From Bacteroidota bacterium (GTDB taxonomy: Bacteria > Bacteroidota > Bacteroidia > NS11-12g > UBA9320): DNA of 64,000 bases. A model generated the notes under the pieces. The model was not told the origin of the DNA. It saw nothing but the letters and a program-made list of their open reading frames with translations, and made no database searches. How positions within the stretch are numbered: position 1 is the stretch's first letter; the number at the start of each line of letters is the position of its first letter. Position numbers and translations under genes: made by a program. Location of the stretch: the NCBI GenBank assembly GCA_002746305.1, contig NVWV01000005.1, positions 205,126 to 269,125 on the forward strand, given 5' to 3'. Shown here piece after piece: positions 53,520 through 59,759 of this stretch.

Positions 53520-53594
53520 GGGAGCTTAGCTCAGTTGGTTTAGAGCATCTGCCTTACAAGCAGAGGGTCGCTGGTTCGAATCCAGCAGTTCCCA
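53520..53594 (+). tRNA. tRNA-Val (anticodon TAC)
   Basis: Folded by hand. The acceptor stem is GGGAGCT/AGTTCCC (one G·U). The D-arm is GCTCAGTTGGTTTAGAGC. The anticodon stem TCTGC/GCAGA has loop CTTACAA (anticodon TAC). The T-arm is GCTGGTTCGAATCCAGC with the GTTCGAATC box. Discriminator A; CCA is not encoded. 75 nt. Confidence 0.85.
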
Positions 53595-53616
53595 CATTGA
53601 ATATCAATCATTTACA

Positions 53617-53646
53617 GAGTCTCGCTTCGGCGGGACTTTTTTTATT
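53617..53646 (+). terminator. Rho-independent terminator after tRNA-Val (GTCTCGC-TTCG-GCGGGAC followed by T7)
   Basis: Read directly: a 7-bp stem with a GNRA-like tetraloop, immediately followed by TTTTTTTATTT. Confidence 0.7.
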
Positions 53647-53907
53647 TGCACACGATTTGCATAAAATTCTGTAAGTAAGTAGTAAGTATTCTTCATAGCT
53701 TTGTTTTACTATTTTTAGTGCAAAATGATTTGTAAGTTGATATATCTGTAGGTAAGGCCAAAAAAAATAGAAGCGCTAAGGTCTGTAATTGCTGTTTTTA
53801 CTGCATTAAGGGTGATGTTATCCCCTTTTGGGGATAGATGGTATACTCTTTTGGGGATGTCTTTATAATTAAAAAAGATAGTCTTTTGCATCTTTTAGAT
53901 TCTCAAT

Positions 53908-54864
53908 TTGTTTATTAAAGAAAAAACTATCGATGATTTATTGCTGTCTCTCTATACCAGTATTGAATTACAACCTAAATCAACAATTACAACATCTCGA
54001 GGAGAGTGTATCGAGGAGCTTGGTGTTTATCTTAAGTTAACTAATCCATTGTCCAGGGTTAGTTGGTCAGTTTCACGAGGTAAAGCTTTCAGCGCTCTTG
54101 GAGAATTTCTTTGGTATGTTTCAGGGAGTGATAAATTGGACTTTATTGAGTACTATATACCGAAGTACATTGATGAATCTACAAATGGTGAATCAGTTCA
54201 TGGCGCATATGGTAAAAGAATTTATTGTCAAGAATATTGTCAAATAGAGCAAGTAATTTCTTTATTATCCCAGAAACCAAATACAAGAAGAGCAGTTATA
54301 CAGCTATTTAAGGTCGAAGATCTAAATGTAGAACTAAAAAATATCCCTTGTACTCTTAGCCTTCAGTTTTTCATACGACATTCAAAATTGGATATGCATG
54401 TTTTTATGAGGTCAAATGATGCCTACAAAGGACTTCCTCATGATATTTTTTCATTTACTCTATTGCAAGAATATATTGCTCGAAGGTTAAATGTTGAGTT
54501 AGGTACATACAATCATTTCGTTTCGAGTATGCATGTATACAAATCAGATATTTCTAAAGTTAAAAAATACATTAGTGATGGATATCAATCTAGCTCAAGT
54601 ACTATGACTAAAATGCCTTTTGAAAAGCCTAAAGAAAATTTAGATATATTACTTTTATATGAGAGTAAAATCAGAAAAAAGGGCATTGCTAGCGCTAAGG
54701 GTATTAATGATTATTGGGCCGACTTAATAACTCTGTTAAACATGTATCGATGTTTTAAGGATAAGGATTCTGTTGAATTTGAAAGGCAAATGTCTCTTCT
54801 TAATAATACAGGTTATAGGCAGTTAGCAAAAGAAAAATTTTCACAATTGGTGGGTAAAATATGA
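53908..54864 (+). CDS. Divergent thymidylate-synthase-fold enzyme (pyrimidine-nucleotide C5 hydroxymethylase/methylase-like; not a canonical ThyA) with ~90-aa C-terminal extension
   Basis: Motif alignment to ThyA is clear. NIPCTLSLQFFI corresponds to LPPCHxxxQFYV (catalytic Cys conserved). RSNDAYKGLPHDIFSFTLLQ corresponds to RSCDVFLGLPFNIASYALL. SSMHVYKSD corresponds to GDAHIYSNH, so the ThyA Asn177/His region is altered and an Asp appears as in dCMP hydroxymethylases. It is far more divergent than housekeeping ThyA, which is nearly invariant in these motifs. Confidence 0.6.
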   Translation: MFIKEKTIDDLLLSLYTSIELQPKSTITTSRGECIEELGVYLKLTNPLSRVSWSVSRGKAFSALGEFLWYVSGSDKLDFIEYYIPKYIDESTNGESVHGAYGKRIYCQEYCQIEQVISLLSQKPNTRRAVIQLFKVEDLNVELKNIPCTLSLQFFIRHSKLDMHVFMRSNDAYKGLPHDIFSFTLLQEYIARRLNVELGTYNHFVSSMHVYKSDISKVKKYISDGYQSSSSTMTKMPFEKPKENLDILLLYESKIRKKGIASAKGINDYWADLITLLNMYRCFKDKDSVEFERQMSLLNNTGYRQLAKEKFSQLVGKI

Positions 54865-55778
54865 CAAAGAAATATGTAGAAATGTATGCTGAGGTTGACA
54901 AAGCAATACAGAAATGTAGCTCTGAAAGGCAAATGCCAGGACTAAATGATGAGGTTCGGAAAACTTTGAATTTACAGTTTGTAGATAGTATAAAGAGAAT
55001 AAAAATAATTGAAGTAATAGATAAAAAGGGAGTTGATGATACTTGTTTAAAACTGAATAGTGACACATTTAACCCTATAAAAGCCATTGCGTGGTATAAA
55101 AGTATTGGAAATTATAATGAGGCTATATGGTTGATTTTTCTGGTTACGCATTTTGGTAAGAACATAAATACAAATTGGAATTTGTTAGTTGATACGTATT
55201 CAGGAGCACGTGTAGATTCTATTTGGAATTGGGAAAGCACATCGACGGAGTTGGGAGATTTTTTGGATTGGTTGAATCTAAATGAAGGTAACCTTAAGAA
55301 AGTCGGAAAATTTGGAAATCATCGTAAATATCAGAGTATTAGTGCAGTCTGTAAAAATGGTACTGGTGACGCTTTTACGAGTTATATTAATTGGATTGGA
55401 GAAGATCGAGACCAACTGGCTAAATTACTCGAAGTAACTAATTCAGCTGGAAATTCGTTTGAAAGATTTGATATGCTTTATTCTGCAATAAAAAGAAATG
55501 TAAATTCGTTCGGTAGAATGGCCACTTTCGACTTTTGCACCATGCTTGGAAAGTTTCGACTTTTAGATATTGAACCGGGACACACCTATCTTGCTGGGGC
55601 TACTGGTCCAGTTTCAGGTTTGAAAACATTGTTCGGAAATAAAACATTAAAGGAATTGGATGAAGATGTTATGGTTCTATACCGAAACCTTAATCAGTTT
55701 TACGGTATGCAAATAATAGAAGATGCTATTTGTAATTGGCAAAAATCAACAGCAAAGTATAGATATTTTGGAGGTTAA
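54861..55778 (+). CDS. Unknown 305-aa Trp/aromatic-rich protein, translationally coupled partner of the thymidylate-synthase-like gene (candidate nucleotide/base-processing enzyme)
   Basis: An ATGA start/stop overlap at 54861-54864 indicates co-translation. No motif I can place. It is rich in W/F/Y and has conserved-looking segments (FGNHRKYQS, SFGRMATFDFCTMLGKF). It has no P-loop, HEXXH or Rossmann Gly-rich loop. Confidence 0.45.
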   Translation: MTKKYVEMYAEVDKAIQKCSSERQMPGLNDEVRKTLNLQFVDSIKRIKIIEVIDKKGVDDTCLKLNSDTFNPIKAIAWYKSIGNYNEAIWLIFLVTHFGKNINTNWNLLVDTYSGARVDSIWNWESTSTELGDFLDWLNLNEGNLKKVGKFGNHRKYQSISAVCKNGTGDAFTSYINWIGEDRDQLAKLLEVTNSAGNSFERFDMLYSAIKRNVNSFGRMATFDFCTMLGKFRLLDIEPGHTYLAGATGPVSGLKTLFGNKTLKELDEDVMVLYRNLNQFYGMQIIEDAICNWQKSTAKYRYFGG

Positions 55779-55784
55779 TCGTGA

Positions 55785-56855
55785 TTAAGAATCCAAAGAG
55801 AAAAAACGTTTGTAGCTATTGAGGTAACCTGGCTTTATTATCCCAAAATATTGCATTTGACCTACAACAATTCCCGGAGATATTCCTAGTTTACTTGCAA
55901 ACGCAATGATTTTTCGTTTGTTACTATTTAGTGTTCTTAATTCTTTGTGAAACTCATTTGGAATCAATACTTCCTGCGCAAATAGGTTAGCCTCATCTTC
56001 TTGTTCATTTATCGATTGCTCGATCTTTCGCTCAATTATGAAGTTGTCTTTTTTATGAAGAAAAATATGGCCTGCTTCATGAAAAAAAGTGAACCAAAAT
56101 TGATCATCGGATTTATATCTAAAACTTAATAAGATCATTGCTTTATCTGGTTTTATAAATCTTGTAGCCCCACTTTCAGTACATCCTTTAGGTGTCGGAA
56201 CTACGGCGACAGCAACTCCACATTCAGAACATATTTTTTTTAGTTCAGATATAAAAACACTTGGATTTTTTTTACGAGTAAGCTTTTTAATTTCTTGTAA
56301 TGCTAATTCAAATAATTCTTTATTAAAGGGCTTACAACTTAGTGCCTCACATTCTTTTTCACCTTGCCTTAACCATGTTGAAAGTGAAAATTCATTTGTC
56401 TGATAGGCTTGAGACGTCCTAAATGATATATTGGAGGTGTTAAGCACATAATGTTTTGACCATTCATGGATATTCTTAACGTTAAAAAAGTCTAAACATT
56501 CTTGAAAGGGATTATTTGACTCCCTTATCCAATTGTGCTTAAACATGTCTTTTAAAGGTAACTTCTTTAACCATTCAATTTGAGTAAGCCTATCAATACC
56601 ACTAATCTTATTTCTGTAATTAGCTTCTCTTTCAAGCCAAAAATTGGTAGATCCTCCAAGATGAATGGCTAAATGTTTTGATACTTCATTGTCTATGGTT
56701 ACTTCACTTCTCAATAATCTGCTTGTAAACTCAAACGTCCAGCCAGTTTTATGTGACAAGATTTGTGTAGATATTGATTTAAGTCTCATTAAATCAATAA
56801 TTGTACTCCCTGGACTTGAAGTCCAGTTTGGCTTAAAATTAACTTGATCTTTCAT
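55785..56855 (-). CDS. Fusion protein: N-terminal HigA-like XRE-family HTH domain + C-terminal ImmA/IrrE-family (DUF955, COG2856-like) HEXXH zinc metallopeptidase
   Basis: The HTH segment LKSISTQILSHKTGWTFEFTSRLLRSEVTIDNEVSKHLAIHLGGSTNFWLERE ends in the HigA-characteristic …FWL. The C-terminal FFHEAGHIFLH is the HEXXH motif of ImmA/IrrE peptidases, with the downstream Glu-rich region NEQEDEANLFAQEVLIP typical of the family. Confidence 0.6.
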   Translation of the reverse strand: MKDQVNFKPNWTSSPGSTIIDLMRLKSISTQILSHKTGWTFEFTSRLLRSEVTIDNEVSKHLAIHLGGSTNFWLEREANYRNKISGIDRLTQIEWLKKLPLKDMFKHNWIRESNNPFQECLDFFNVKNIHEWSKHYVLNTSNISFRTSQAYQTNEFSLSTWLRQGEKECEALSCKPFNKELFELALQEIKKLTRKKNPSVFISELKKICSECGVAVAVVPTPKGCTESGATRFIKPDKAMILLSFRYKSDDQFWFTFFHEAGHIFLHKKDNFIIERKIEQSINEQEDEANLFAQEVLIPNEFHKELRTLNSNKRKIIAFASKLGISPGIVVGQMQYFGIIKPGYLNSYKRFFSLDS

Positions 56856-57144
56856 TGGCTTTATTTATAGCTACTACTTTTATTCTACTTTCTTCGTATT
56901 CTTTGTTTAAGTCTTCTCTTAGAATCTCTACTGTTAAACTATATTCTAAATCTAGTTTAATTTCTATTAGTGTCTTGCTTAAACGGTTGATAGGAAATGG
57001 GAATTCATTAAAAGTGTTGACACTCAATAAATCAGATATTCTATTTTTTATTTGGGTGGCAATAGTAATACCAAACATTTGTTCTGCAATATCGGTGTTT
57101 TCACAAACATCTCTAATTTTTTTGTCCCCAAATGACAATATCAA
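56839..57144 (-). CDS. HigB-like toxin candidate (RelE/ParE superfamily) upstream of the HigA-like HTH-peptidase gene
   Basis: The size is small (≤101 aa; alternative start MFGIT… gives 78 aa). The toxin-first order and 17-nt overlap with the HTH gene are typical of higBA. The N-terminal ILSFGDKKIRDVCEN resembles the HigB opening (I-K-S-F-x-x-K-x-L). This is a weak, by-eye similarity only. Confidence 0.3.
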   Translation of the reverse strand: MILSFGDKKIRDVCENTDIAEQMFGITIATQIKNRISDLLSVNTFNEFPFPINRLSKTLIEIKLDLEYSLTVEILREDLNKEYEESRIKVVAINKANERSS

Positions 57145-57382
57145 ATCTCTGTTTATTAATGTTTATTCCTATGCGAATCTAAGTTTTGTAATGATAAAAG
57201 GTGAGTTCAGCTTCAAATAACTTGCATGAAACAATTTGTGTAAATAACAGTTATTGTGCATTTAAAGAAACAGAGACGCGTAAGCGCTTGAAAATGTGGC
57301 ATGTACGTTATTAATAATTTTAGCTGACCAATTTTTGCCCCCTCATACTATCTGGAGTTCAACGGATGATACTTAAAGTCAT

Positions 57383-59536
57383 TTATCTAAGCACTTCTAT
57401 TTTTTGACTTCCTGTATTCCCATCTTCATCTGTGAGACTAAGAATGTAATTTCCTGCTGTCAGTGTGGTGTGAATTGTAATAAGTGAAGAGTTCTTGGAT
57501 TTCTGAGTATATGCTAGCTTACCATTCATGTCAAGTATCTTAATGTTTACATTCAGTTGTTCATTGCCCAGTTCAATAGAGATGTTCCCATCACTTGGAT
57601 TTGGATAGATTTTGAATGGTAGACTATTGATTTTAGGAATTGAAGCAAAATCTACCAATAGACTATCGCTCAATTCACTTTCACAACCATACTCGCTCAC
57701 CAGTTGAACTTGCCAGTAACCATTGCTATCTGGGTCTAATCTTCTTTCTGTTGTTTCAAACTTAGCTACACCATCTCTGTACCATCTGTAGGTATGGGCC
57801 AGAGTGTTACTCACTACACTGTCTTTAAAGCGACTTATAAGGGACTTATTGGGATTTGGATATTCTGCAATGGTAAGTGTATCCCATGCTTGGCAAAAGG
57901 TCTTATTGGTAACCTTAATCCTATATACTCCTGCTGTATCTGCAATTAGAGTATCTGCATTAACCCCCTGAAAATGGTCGTAGTCTATTATAGGTCCGAG
58001 GGCATTATCTAGGTTAGGCTCTTCTATAGGTCCTTTGTCACCCCAATGCACACAATGCATATTGGCAGGAGCTTGGAGAACGAGATTGATAGAATCACCA
58101 GTACAGTAAAAAGTATCAGTACCGAGCATATTCAAATCCCACTTGGGATGAATGGTTAAAGTTTTAGTTACGGTATCTGTTCTGCTTCCAATAGTAGCAA
58201 AATGGCTCACTTGCCACTTTCCCGTGTCGGGGAAGGAGTAATTACAATGCTTAGTTAAACTACTGTCTTTGAAGTTACTAACCCCCACTTTTTGAAAACA
58301 CCATTTCCATGAAGTGGCTTGTAATGTATCTCTTCCTTCAAAACTGTAAGAATGACCCCAACAATCTTCGGTGTATGCAAAGTCTATGCTGGGTGTATAG
58401 AAGTAAGAAGCATTGAAGTTAGGAAGGCCGTAAGAAACTATTCTGTTGGGTATTTTATAATGTCTTAAATCTAGACCTGAATTGTTTCCTTGTAAGTTTG
58501 GATATTTAATAACCGATAAATATGAAGAATCTGGGATTGCACCATATATAAAACCATTACTGTAATTCTGAAGTGCCATGTTGGAAAAGGTGTTTTGAGC
58601 GGTCCACAAGATTGTTTTAGAATTATGAACGGAATCAATATTCAAGTTGGATAAGTCGTATTGAATTAGATGTCGACCTCTTTCAGAAGAATAAAGTTTT
58701 GTTTCATCAGGTGAAAAAACACTGTGTATCGGCAACCATAATTTTTGGGAACTCAGTATATAATCAATTTCACCAGTAGAATTATTAAACTTATATAACT
58801 CCACTATTCCATCAGCATTAAACTCATTGAGAGAATATATGGTCAATGCAAGCATTTTGCTTGACGCAGAAAAGGTTAGACTTCCTGCAGCATTTGAGCC
58901 TTTATTTCCAATGTAGTTTTGCGATTCGAAATTTTTTGGACAAATAGGGTCTTGATTGTCACGAATAAGAAAAATATAGCCCTTCTCAGACTTAAACTTA
59001 TGTAAGACTAACCAATTATCTTTTTGATTAGCATGTTTAACTATGCTTTGCATTTCGCAAACTGGGCTCAATATTTTTTTATCTCCTATTTTTACTCCAT
59101 CCTTAAAAGTATAAACATTTGCACCATTTGTTCCTCCAATATCGGTTGTAGTAATTACATTAATAATAGAGTCATTTCCTGAAATTAATACCCCTTGCAC
59201 AGAAGATTTATCTCCCTTGAGTGTTGAAATAATATTGAAATTACTATCATATAAGTTTGCTGCATCAGAGTAGTAAAGCAATTTTCCAGTTTTACTTGAA
59301 AAGGAGGAATATGCTTCAGACGTGTGTACATTCGAGGTGCTGACTATTATCGAATCATCAAAATTTAATAGAATGCTGTCGCCAAAAGTCCAATGCTTGG
59401 TTCTCAAAAAATCGGGATTAGTTTCAGGAATTTGGGCAAATGAGCTTATGTTCAATAGTAAAATTAAACTGAGCAATGTGGATTTCATCAACTGAGGCAT
59501 GTTATAAAGATATGTAACCTGAATCTTATGTTGCAT
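57383..59536 (-). CDS. Secreted protein with T9SS C-terminal sorting domain (beta-propeller/Ig-like cargo)
   Basis: The C-terminus (FKIYPNPSDGNISIELG…GNYILSLTDEDGNTGSQKIEVLR) is a type-A T9SS CTD. The signal peptide is likely at the internal start MKSTLLSLILLLNISSFAQ (about 59488), which would remove the 11-nt overlap with the upstream HTH gene. Confidence 0.55.
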   Translation of the reverse strand: MQHKIQVTYLYNMPQLMKSTLLSLILLLNISSFAQIPETNPDFLRTKHWTFGDSILLNFDDSIIVSTSNVHTSEAYSSFSSKTGKLLYYSDAANLYDSNFNIISTLKGDKSSVQGVLISGNDSIINVITTTDIGGTNGANVYTFKDGVKIGDKKILSPVCEMQSIVKHANQKDNWLVLHKFKSEKGYIFLIRDNQDPICPKNFESQNYIGNKGSNAAGSLTFSASSKMLALTIYSLNEFNADGIVELYKFNNSTGEIDYILSSQKLWLPIHSVFSPDETKLYSSERGRHLIQYDLSNLNIDSVHNSKTILWTAQNTFSNMALQNYSNGFIYGAIPDSSYLSVIKYPNLQGNNSGLDLRHYKIPNRIVSYGLPNFNASYFYTPSIDFAYTEDCWGHSYSFEGRDTLQATSWKWCFQKVGVSNFKDSSLTKHCNYSFPDTGKWQVSHFATIGSRTDTVTKTLTIHPKWDLNMLGTDTFYCTGDSINLVLQAPANMHCVHWGDKGPIEEPNLDNALGPIIDYDHFQGVNADTLIADTAGVYRIKVTNKTFCQAWDTLTIAEYPNPNKSLISRFKDSVVSNTLAHTYRWYRDGVAKFETTERRLDPDSNGYWQVQLVSEYGCESELSDSLLVDFASIPKINSLPFKIYPNPSDGNISIELGNEQLNVNIKILDMNGKLAYTQKSKNSSLITIHTTLTAGNYILSLTDEDGNTGSQKIEVLR

Positions 59537-59759
59537 TCAGTTGATTAAAAAAAACATCAATCTGACATTTATGTATGTTTAAAATTTTCATTAAATACAT
59601 CAAACTTATTTGCTTACCTGCTTCGGCAGCCCAGTAATGCCTTCTGCTTAGGTCATGGTCCACAGCAAATGTTTCATAGCTTGTATACCCTGATTCCAAC
59701 CTCATTTGTTTCAACTTCTTTCCAATTATACCGAATACTATTTCAGGGTTATTTACCAC
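59526..59759 (-). CDS. XRE-family helix-turn-helix transcriptional regulator (77 aa)
   Basis: IGKKLKQMRLESGYTSYETFAVDHDLSRRHYWAAEAGKQISLMYLMKIL has the HTH_3/XRE pattern (hydrophobic core, Q/R DNA-contact positions). Confidence 0.5.
   Translation of the reverse strand: MVNNPEIVFGIIGKKLKQMRLESGYTSYETFAVDHDLSRRHYWAAEAGKQISLMYLMKILNIHKCQIDVFFNQLNAT

Follow-up and report, generated by a model that had tools for sequence, protein, structure and literature searches.

A conserved four-gene cassette of 3.3 kb (genes A, B, C and D) was analyzed in a stretch of 64,000 nucleotides (nt) of a Bacteroidota bacterium (assembly GCA_002746305.1, contig NVWV01000005.1, positions 205,126 to 269,125 of the forward strand); this whole stretch is referred to as the window. 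The cassette is accessory and horizontally mobile. It is tentatively read, with a probability which we place somewhat below an even chance, as an inducible anti-phage or conflict system, in which a switch composed of a HigB-fold protein and an Xre-type regulator with a peptidase domain would control a two-enzyme effector modifying deoxycytidine (dC). What is established here comprises the genes present and their conservation, the assignments to families and folds, the residue signatures and the accessory, mobile distribution. The four open reading frames (ORFs) have the following window coordinates:

53908-54864, + strand: gene A, thymidylate-synthase (TS)-fold enzyme, 318 amino acids (aa); ORF
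54861-55778, + strand: gene B, aGPT-Pplase clade 3 / amino-acid:DNA-transferase-like protein, 305 aa; ORF
55785-56855, - strand: gene C, Xre-type helix-turn-helix (HTH) domain plus ImmA/IrrE (M78) zinc peptidase, 356 aa; ORF
56839-57144, - strand: gene D, HigB/RelE/ParE-fold small protein, 101 aa; ORF, first gene of the D-C operon

Genes A and B overlap by 4 nt on the + strand and B is translationally coupled to A; D and C overlap by 17 nt on the - strand. B and C are convergent, with stop codons 6 nt apart. When genes were called independently on the source contigs, the identical four were obtained.

Relatives of B were searched by scanning one genome per species (185,579 genomes), and 80 genome loci were fetched and labelled L001-L080. 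Hidden Markov models of the four families detected B in 80, C in 75, A in 71 and D in 70 of these loci. For gene order and strand, the 80 genome loci were pooled with 28 loci from viral contigs; 79 had room for the whole unit. All four genes were present in 77 of these 79, and 76 of the 77 showed the arrangement A+ B+ C- D-. In the remaining locus, from Sorangium cellulosum So ce26 (L049, 12049-13669), D-C is located downstream of A-B on the same strand. More than ten phyla are represented (Bacteroidota, Acidobacteriota, Planctomycetota, Proteobacteria, Actinobacteria, Chloroflexota, Verrucomicrobiota, Saccharibacteria and others). Such a recurrence of the four genes, in 77 of the 79 related loci that are long enough, is far beyond chance, and A, B, C and D are one conserved cassette. 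An initial annotation, made from the letters of the window alone, had divided the genes into an A-B pair and a separate toxin-antitoxin (TA)-like module; this division is not upheld.

ORF clustering in the 80 loci revealed a single further conserved neighbor, gene X (about 265 aa), which separates A from B in 53-54 of the 80 loci (for instance L002, 2970-3761, and L003, 9193-10014) and is absent from the window. The motifs GLNPSNxEF, ACHLDLxPYAT and NHNxQSSxG are strongly conserved in X. It had no match in Pfam, PDB sequences, PADLOC or NCBIfam; comparison to E. coli Mug by hhalign gave a weak e-value of 0.14, and a membership of X in the uracil-DNA glycosylase superfamily, guessed from the motifs, was not confirmed. 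Neither a kinase nor an integrase was found conserved near the cassette by the same clustering. A gene for a Nudix or MazG-like nucleoside triphosphate pyrophosphatase lies at most 500 bp from the cassette in 14 of 80 loci (~17%) and nowhere else in those loci. Genes of this kind were noted in L002 (1568-1951), L015 (8589-8990), L091 (11441-11824) and L092 (6744-7148), and MazG-like ones in L056 (12438-12701) and in the E. coli locus L084 (15384-15647), where the gene is also adjacent to the cassette. The cassette in the window has no Nudix or MazG-like gene.

The product of gene A matched Pfam Thymidylat_synt with an e-value of 2.7e-25 and remained below every NCBIfam cut-off for ThyA (TIGR03283, 91 bits versus 174.55; NF002497, 81.7 versus 327). 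Its best solved relative was the CMP hydroxymethylase MilA (PDB 5b6d, 1e-40, full-length match, residues 13-289), whereas the best true TS reached only 7e-16. This difference bears out the earlier view of A as a divergent member of the TS fold that resembles the hydroxymethylases. Residues were counted in 66 cassette homologues at diagnostic positions taken from PMC5175136 and PMC13326640. ThyA recognizes uracil through Asn177, and its bulky hydrophobic residue at position 143 keeps water out, so that the methyl product is formed (PMC5175136, PMC13326640). The catalytic and ribose-binding set is kept in A (Cys148 in 66/66, Glu66 in 64/66, His209 in 66/66 and Tyr211 in 65/66). Asp179 stands at the position of ThyA Asn177, where all 66 homologues have Asp, as for a cytosine substrate. 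Two positions concern deoxyribose: Arg127, at MilA Lys133, is Arg in 64/66, and Ser169, at MilA Ala176, is Ser in 66/66. At the equivalent of ThyA Leu143, Asp or Glu is found in 54/66 homologues, as for a hydroxymethyl instead of a methyl product. These residues indicate that A carries the signature of a dCMP C5-hydroxymethylase of the T4 gp42/MilA type and is a candidate for such an enzyme, not for ThyA. A function as 5-hydroxy-dCMP synthase was also considered and ruled out, because Asp171, at the position of ThyA Asp169, is kept as Asp in 66/66 and the diagnostic change to Asn is absent.

Besides the Cys/Glu/His/Tyr set, A has in common with T4 gp42 and MilA the Asp at ThyA Asn177 and the polar or acidic residue at Leu143. 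Its Arg/Ser pattern is that of the deoxy-specific T4 enzyme, whereas both MilA and BcmA have Lys/Ala and prefer ribonucleotides. An N-glycosidase of the MilB/BcmB type is missing from the cassette, as are the gp1-type deoxynucleoside monophosphate (dNMP) kinase and the glucosyltransferase of the T4 route. In T4, gp56 (dCTPase) feeds gp42, and the Nudix/MazG-like neighbor in ~17% of loci parallels gp56. In RefSeq, the orthologues of A in L084, L085, L087 and L088 are called 'thymidylate synthase' with the gene ontology term dTMP biosynthesis. As the residues speak for dCMP as the substrate and against a methyl product, this naming is likely a systematic mis-annotation.

The 305-aa protein encoded by B had been left as an unknown in the initial annotation. 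It matched the Pfam family PF18746 (aGPT-Pplase clade 3) with 7.3e-73 and 245.8 bits (cut-off 25) and PF18724 (amino acid:DNA transferase) with 2.3e-53 and 181.7 bits (cut-off 26.2), while HMUDK_hel gave 0.016 only. The aGPT-Pplase clades were reportedly defined by Iyer et al. in 2013. No match to PDB was obtained by sequence or profile. The AlphaFold model of B (predicted local distance difference test, pLDDT, 91; predicted template modelling score, pTM, 0.90) has a predicted helix-hairpin-helix, DNA-glycosylase-like fold, which is nearest to a solved amino-acid:DNA transferase (AADT); the PDB fold search with this model led to 8z2m. The motif E287-D288-x-x-C291-N-W-Q-K is invariant in 80/80 sequences, and hhalign sets E287-x3-C291 on E-T-V-L-C-K-W of M6 gp51 (the Glu243/Thr244/Cys247 site) with a weak e-value of 0.22. 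An F-G-R-x-A-x-F-D element is near-invariant in the B family and was read as hairpin-like. With confidence as to the family, B is assigned by its sequence to clade 3, with a Glu-x3-Cys motif that is putatively equivalent to that of the phage amino-acid:DNA transferases.

The assayed members of the aGPT-Pplase family belong to clade 2. In the thymidine route of phages, a dUMP hydroxymethylase leads to 5-hydroxymethyl-deoxyuridine (5-hmdU), which is phosphorylated in DNA by a P-loop kinase (PMC8989533, PMC11472151). The clade-2 enzyme then swaps the phosphate for glycine, serine or putrescine, for which a Cys is essential together with a neighboring Glu (PMC8989533, PMC11472151); in PaMx11 gp46, the essential pair is Glu243/Cys247, the Glu preceding the Cys by four residues (PMC11472151). 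The cassette resembles the thymidine hypermodification loci of the phages M6, PaMx11, ViI and PhiW-14 in combining a TS-fold hydroxymethylase with an aGPT-Pplase/AADT enzyme (PMC8989533, PMC11472151). In contrast to these loci, it encodes neither a 5-hmdU DNA kinase nor pyridoxal phosphate, radical S-adenosylmethionine or FAD tailoring enzymes; Thr244 of clade 2 is replaced by Asp288 in B, and A is of the cytosine type (Asp), whereas the dUMP hydroxymethylase M6 gp58 is of the uracil type (Asn). Furthermore, the cassette is bacterial, and neither it nor clade 3 was detected in any of 50,697 sequenced phage genomes. With A as a putative dCMP-type partner, the pairing of B does not fit the thymidine pathway that gives the family of B its name.

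Gene C matched Pfam Peptidase_M78 (2.6e-12) and, weakly, HTH_26, as well as phrog_2439 (1e-26) and the PADLOC model PD-Lambda-2_B (PDLC03982; 7.3e-31, residues 60-335 of 356). In an alignment of 67 sequences, conservation of H259-E260-x-x-H263 and E286 reaches 95% or more. No other gene of the cassette is as well conserved as C, whose e-values against its relatives go down to 1e-118. Pfam, PADLOC and these residues confirmed the earlier description of C as a regulator of the Xre type with a fused ImmA/IrrE HEXXH peptidase.

Profile searches of Pfam, PDB and PADLOC gave no match for D. Of 25 members of the D family, 13 matched phrog_3066 ('toxin of TA system'), at best with 2.8e-6. When the AlphaFold model of D (pLDDT 86) was compared to PDB using Foldseek, the top ~40 matches were all toxins of the RelE/ParE superfamily (RelE, ParE, HigB, YoeB and YafQ). 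The best match was P. vulgaris HigB (TM scores 0.61/0.68) with a marginal e-value of 2.9e-3, and no other match had a lower one. Judged by its model, D has the HigB/RelE/ParE fold, which agrees with the earlier label of a toxin-like small ORF. Only F5, R11, C14, D38 and R87 are conserved in the D family. The catalytic residues of HigB are C-terminal and were not seen in the alignment. The D homologue of E. coli SCU-152 (L084, 14914-15240, - strand; 108 aa) overlaps the start of the XRE/peptidase gene and is not annotated in RefSeq; a D homologue is also absent from the PLSDB gene table of a Pantoea plasmid, a table which is incomplete by design.

The validated abortive infection (Abi) system PD-lambda-2 consists of a HigB-like protein A, an Xre-plus-peptidase protein B and a P4-antitoxin-like protein C (Vassallo et al. 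2022, PMC9519451). Its peptidase fusion is toxic alone and is neutralized by the HigB-like protein, such that the roles are reversed in comparison to HigBA TA systems (PMC9519451), where a RelE/HigB-fold toxin with the residues of a ribosome-dependent RNase is neutralized by the HTH antitoxin HigA. In both PD-lambda-2 and the cassette, a small gene, HigB-like in the former and putatively so in the latter, is followed by an Xre-HTH/ImmA-IrrE peptidase gene in one operon, and both are found on mobile or accessory DNA; to this is added the PD-Lambda-2_B match of cassette C and the predicted HigB/RelE fold of cassette D. The two differ in that no member of the cassette D family matches the PD-Lambda-2_A model, that cassette A and B have no PADLOC match, and that the P4-antitoxin-like third protein is neither present in the window nor conserved in the relatives. 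In its place, two or three nucleotide- or DNA-modifying enzymes are encoded on the opposite strand. In our view, the cassette joins a control pair resembling that of PD-lambda-2 to a novel effector, which would modify nucleotides.

The distribution is that of an accessory element, as had been supposed, and not of core genes. Relatives of B occur in 456 of the 185,579 species genomes, spread over many phyla. Among complete E. coli genomes, the cassette was present in 236 of 5,426 (4.3%), always chromosomal and single-copy. It was further found on 10 plasmids and in 28 of 2.9 million IMG/VR viral contigs. Beside or inside the cassette, genes for integrases, relaxases, type IV secretion system (T4SS) components, insertion sequence (IS) elements, type I and II restriction-modification (R-M) systems, dGTPase-family proteins and Shedu SduA_C were observed. 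In Bacteroidota, the cassette is cargo of elements with a relaxase, a T4SS coupling protein and an integrase. Two E. coli strains were inspected. In one, the island bears an integrase, adjoins tRNA-Sec and includes type I R-M; in the other, it is IS-rich and includes type I R-M and a dGTPase-family gene. A MazG-like gene is present in both islands, directly adjacent in one and beyond an IS66 element in the other. In about 6 of 60 related loci, a tRNA lies no more than 1 kb away from the cassette, and its identity varies between loci.

Some single loci may be mentioned here. A Shedu-type SduA_C nuclease gene is inserted between B and C in Flavobacterium litorale (L090, 9930-11027) and located directly upstream of A in another genome (L093, 6033-7133). 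A C5-methylase/MutH-type pair was noted near one cassette locus. In the Pantoea agglomerans plasmid pFC61912-B_D (L088), a restriction endonuclease gene adjoins the cassette, and genes for a phage head-processing protein and a lysozyme of glycoside hydrolase family 104 on the same replicon suggest a phage-plasmid.

No paper describing the combination of A, B, C and D was found in the literature searched. The DefensePredictor study (2026; PMC13092281) highlights a predicted defense system composed of aGPT-Pplase, HTH and one homologue of a known defense gene (Fig. 6F, S12A), and this system is probably the A-B-C-D cassette. In its E. coli table, WP_000174035.1 is listed as a predicted novel defense gene with a mean log-odds of 7.6 (PMC13092281); this protein is the A orthologue of the cassette in E. 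coli strain cq9. The validated unit DS-4 of the same study consists of a 361-aa TS and adenylate-kinase-like, 5hmdU-kinase-like and TIR proteins (PMC13092281) and is, with its TS, kinases and TIR, a unit distinct from the cassette. The system had been put forward as undescribed. This stands insofar as no validated system of such composition exists in PADLOC or the literature searched; it does not stand insofar as the family of B has a Pfam name and a DefensePredictor prediction is available. The finding is more coherent than at first reading and also less unknown, the family of B being named and the unit probably having been flagged as a predicted defense system. Neither of the two observations named beforehand as speaking against such an islet was made, i.e., A being the sole TS within a core synteny, or B belonging to a mundane housekeeping family.

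The defense reading is based on the conservation of the four genes as one cassette, their accessory distribution with a mobile and defense-related context, the match of C to PD-Lambda-2_B, the predicted fold of D, the residue signature of A, the fold and invariant motif of B, the Nudix/MazG-like neighbors, and the DefensePredictor results, i.e., the score of A and the highlighted aGPT-Pplase plus HTH system. From these we infer the defense function, the trigger, the substrate of B and the physiological outcome as follows. D would bind C and hold it in check. A phage or DNA-damage cue would release the peptidase, relieve repression, or both. According to its residue signature, A would convert dCMP and methylene-tetrahydrofolate to 5-hydroxymethyl-dCMP. 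B might attack C6 of the 5-hydroxymethyl-pyrimidine, on the nucleotide or in DNA, whereupon the hydroxyl would be replaced by another nucleophile. By this, the supply of dC nucleotides could be drained or poisoned, or replicating DNA could be decorated, so that phage replication would stop at a cost to the cell. The optional Nudix/MazG-like pyrophosphatase and gene X, both missing from the window, would fit a flow from dCTP over dCMP to hydroxymethyl-dCMP. Defenses depleting nucleotides by dCTP deaminase or dGTPase are known. The cassette would resemble them in removing dNTP precursors during infection; their enzyme families are unrelated to those of the cassette.

Several points weigh against this reading. 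Since no dNMP kinase and no 5-hydroxymethyl-base DNA kinase is conserved, neither a route of hydroxymethyl-dCMP into DNA nor a phage-style activation of the substrate of B is evident. Making hydroxymethylcytosine does no obvious harm to phages. The third protein required by PD-lambda-2 is absent, and PADLOC has no models for A, B or D. The A protein of the window has Asn145, not Asp or Glu, at the position correlated with hydroxymethylation. The equivalence of the active site of B to that of clade 2 is composed of the weak hhalign match (e-value 0.22), the fold and the motif spacing. In the window, the cassette is surrounded by housekeeping and envelope genes, and neither a further defense gene nor an integrase is nearby. 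Finally, the list of screened units in the accessible part of the DefensePredictor study does not include the unit of E. coli (PMC13092281).

The main rival is hypermodification of the cell's or the mobile element's own DNA, which we regard as unlikely, though ahead of all other alternatives. Here, A would produce 5-hydroxymethyl-dCMP, host kinases would lead it into DNA, and B, if present together with X, would bulk up the hydroxymethylcytosine, which would shield the DNA from foreign restriction, e.g., during conjugative transfer; C and D would serve as regulator and addiction module. The characterized relatives of B work on flipped-out bases in double-stranded DNA (PMC8989533, PMC11472151), and phage TS homologues expressed alone leave traces of modified dC in E. 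coli DNA (PMC13326640), both of which this explanation would accommodate. The same applies to the F-G-R-x-A-x-F-D element of B, hairpin-like by our reading, to the match of its fold to DNA glycosylases, and to the frequent occurrence of the cassette as cargo of integrative or mobilizable elements with relaxase and T4SS genes. However, neither kind of kinase is conserved near the cassette and no restriction partner reading the mark is conserved. The conserved partner is a PD-lambda-2-like Abi pair instead of a typical regulator of modification genes, and clade 3 was found in none of the sequenced phages, even though it is mainly phages that protect themselves by hypermodification.

An improbable alternative is a small-molecule pathway comparable to those of mildiomycin and bacimethrin, in which A would make a 5-hydroxymethyl-cytosine nucleotide and B would release or derivatize the base of the free nucleotide, giving an antimetabolite or signal. 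MilA is indeed the nearest characterized relative of A, the DNA kinase is absent, and a glycosylase-like fold such as that of B also exists in the queuine-salvage enzyme DUF2419. Yet the deoxyribose pattern Arg/Ser is found in 64-66 of 66 A homologues, in contrast to Lys/Ala in MilA and BcmA; B has the putative Cys-Glu transferase motif and not the Asp/Lys arrangement of glycosylases. Methyltransferase, exporter or other tailoring genes are not conserved, and the genomic context consists of defense or mobile elements.

It is very improbable that two unrelated neighbors are present, i.e., a TA pair of HigB-like and HTH-peptidase proteins beside a separate two-gene operon for nucleotide metabolism. 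The pairs are convergent with presumably separate promoters, and HigB-like plus Xre-peptidase pairs do occur alone elsewhere (PMC9519451), but this explanation is contradicted by the presence of all four genes in 77/79 loci from more than ten phyla, in the same order and strands in 76/77, by C being the best-conserved gene of the set, and by the lack of any other conserved neighbor besides X. That A is the ordinary TS of its genome with incidental neighbors is hardly credible and contradicted by the data, since against the Pfam Thymidylat_synt match and the RefSeq names stand scores far under the NCBIfam cut-offs (81.7 versus 327 bits), Asp in 66/66 for the uracil-reading Asn177, polar or acidic residues for Leu143, the carriage by 4.3% of E. 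coli genomes only, and thyA of E. coli K-12 being a separate gene.

If the cassette is an inducible defense system, it would represent a new logic of immune effectors, namely the deliberate production of a modified nucleotide or base as opposed to cutting nucleic acids or degrading nucleotides. Clade 3 would obtain its first function, within a DNA-modifying family otherwise known only from phages, and the PD-lambda-2-type pair of HigB-fold and Xre-peptidase proteins would be a portable control module wired to different effectors. A bolder and doubtful version would see in it the first cellular, i.e., non-viral, cytosine hypermodification: a clade-3 enzyme would act on 5-hydroxymethyl-cytosine without a kinase, under the HigB-fold/Xre-peptidase switch, as an inducible immune effector sabotaging replicating DNA or the dC pool. 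The cassette is directly testable, being small (3.3 kb), widespread (more than ten phyla) and present in 4% of E. coli genomes. Two annotations are to be corrected: the name 'thymidylate synthase' of A in RefSeq and the omission of D in the inspected RefSeq record of E. coli.

The surroundings of the cassette in the window contain the following further features:

53520-53595, + strand: tRNA-Val (anticodon TAC); ARAGORN, and Rfam RF00005 with 74.2 bits
53616-53639, + strand: terminator-like hairpin at the end of the tRNA transcription unit, 10-bp stem followed by a T-run; consensus match only
53814-53858, no strand: two tandem 22-nt repeats at a distance of 50-95 nt upstream of A, speculatively an operator bound by the HTH of C; repeat search
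57145-57382, no strand: intergenic stretch 5' of D, presumed D-C promoter region; read from the sequence

The order of a tRNA-Val followed by four ORFs, as initially described, was reproduced with ARAGORN, Rfam, the ORFs and the independent gene calls. According to both ARAGORN and Rfam, tRNA-Val(TAC) is the sole tRNA of the window. It is a neighbor of the cassette and outside the cassette proper; the spacer between the hairpin on the tRNA side and gene A measures 268 nt. The proposal of this tRNA as an insertion hotspot is not upheld: tRNA-Val is not a specific attachment site, and relatives are found beside various tRNAs, integrases, relaxases, IS elements and defense genes. As had been noted before, integrases and transposases are missing: none was called on the source contig up to ~10 kb away from the cassette. 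The 3' end of tRNA-Val was also searched for direct repeats, which could mark an attachment site, and none was found. A 19-nt inverted repeat bracketing the cassette (53762-53780 / 57387-57405) was rejected, as it is at chance level and one of ten similar pairs. The G+C content of the four genes (0.29-0.36) resembles that of the flanks and shows no anomaly. The flanking genes encode HemN-like, AsmA-like and type IX secretion system (T9SS)-sorted proteins.

Each of the 22-nt repeats upstream of A holds a 6+4+6 dyad, ATCCCC-TTTT-GGGGAT and ATACTC-TTTT-GGGGAT, respectively (ATCCCCTTTTGGGGAT; ATACTCTTTTGGGGAT). The window contains no further match to them; two or more matches were also obtained in 27 of 100 shuffles, hence, their number is not exceptional. 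No conserved dyad was seen upstream of A in the relatives. A function of the repeats as operator for C is speculative. A scan for σ70 promoters in the stretch 5' of D (57145-57382) gave no signal above chance.

Two minor observations concern the region further downstream. A 77-aa Xre-like HTH ORF (59526-59759, - strand) is located just upstream of the gene for a T9SS-sorted protein of 717 aa. Between 60000 and 61250, the G+C content rises up to 0.43-0.45 over a background of ~0.33, which coincides with the start of a gene for an M43-peptidase/PKD-repeat protein of ~2,200 aa.

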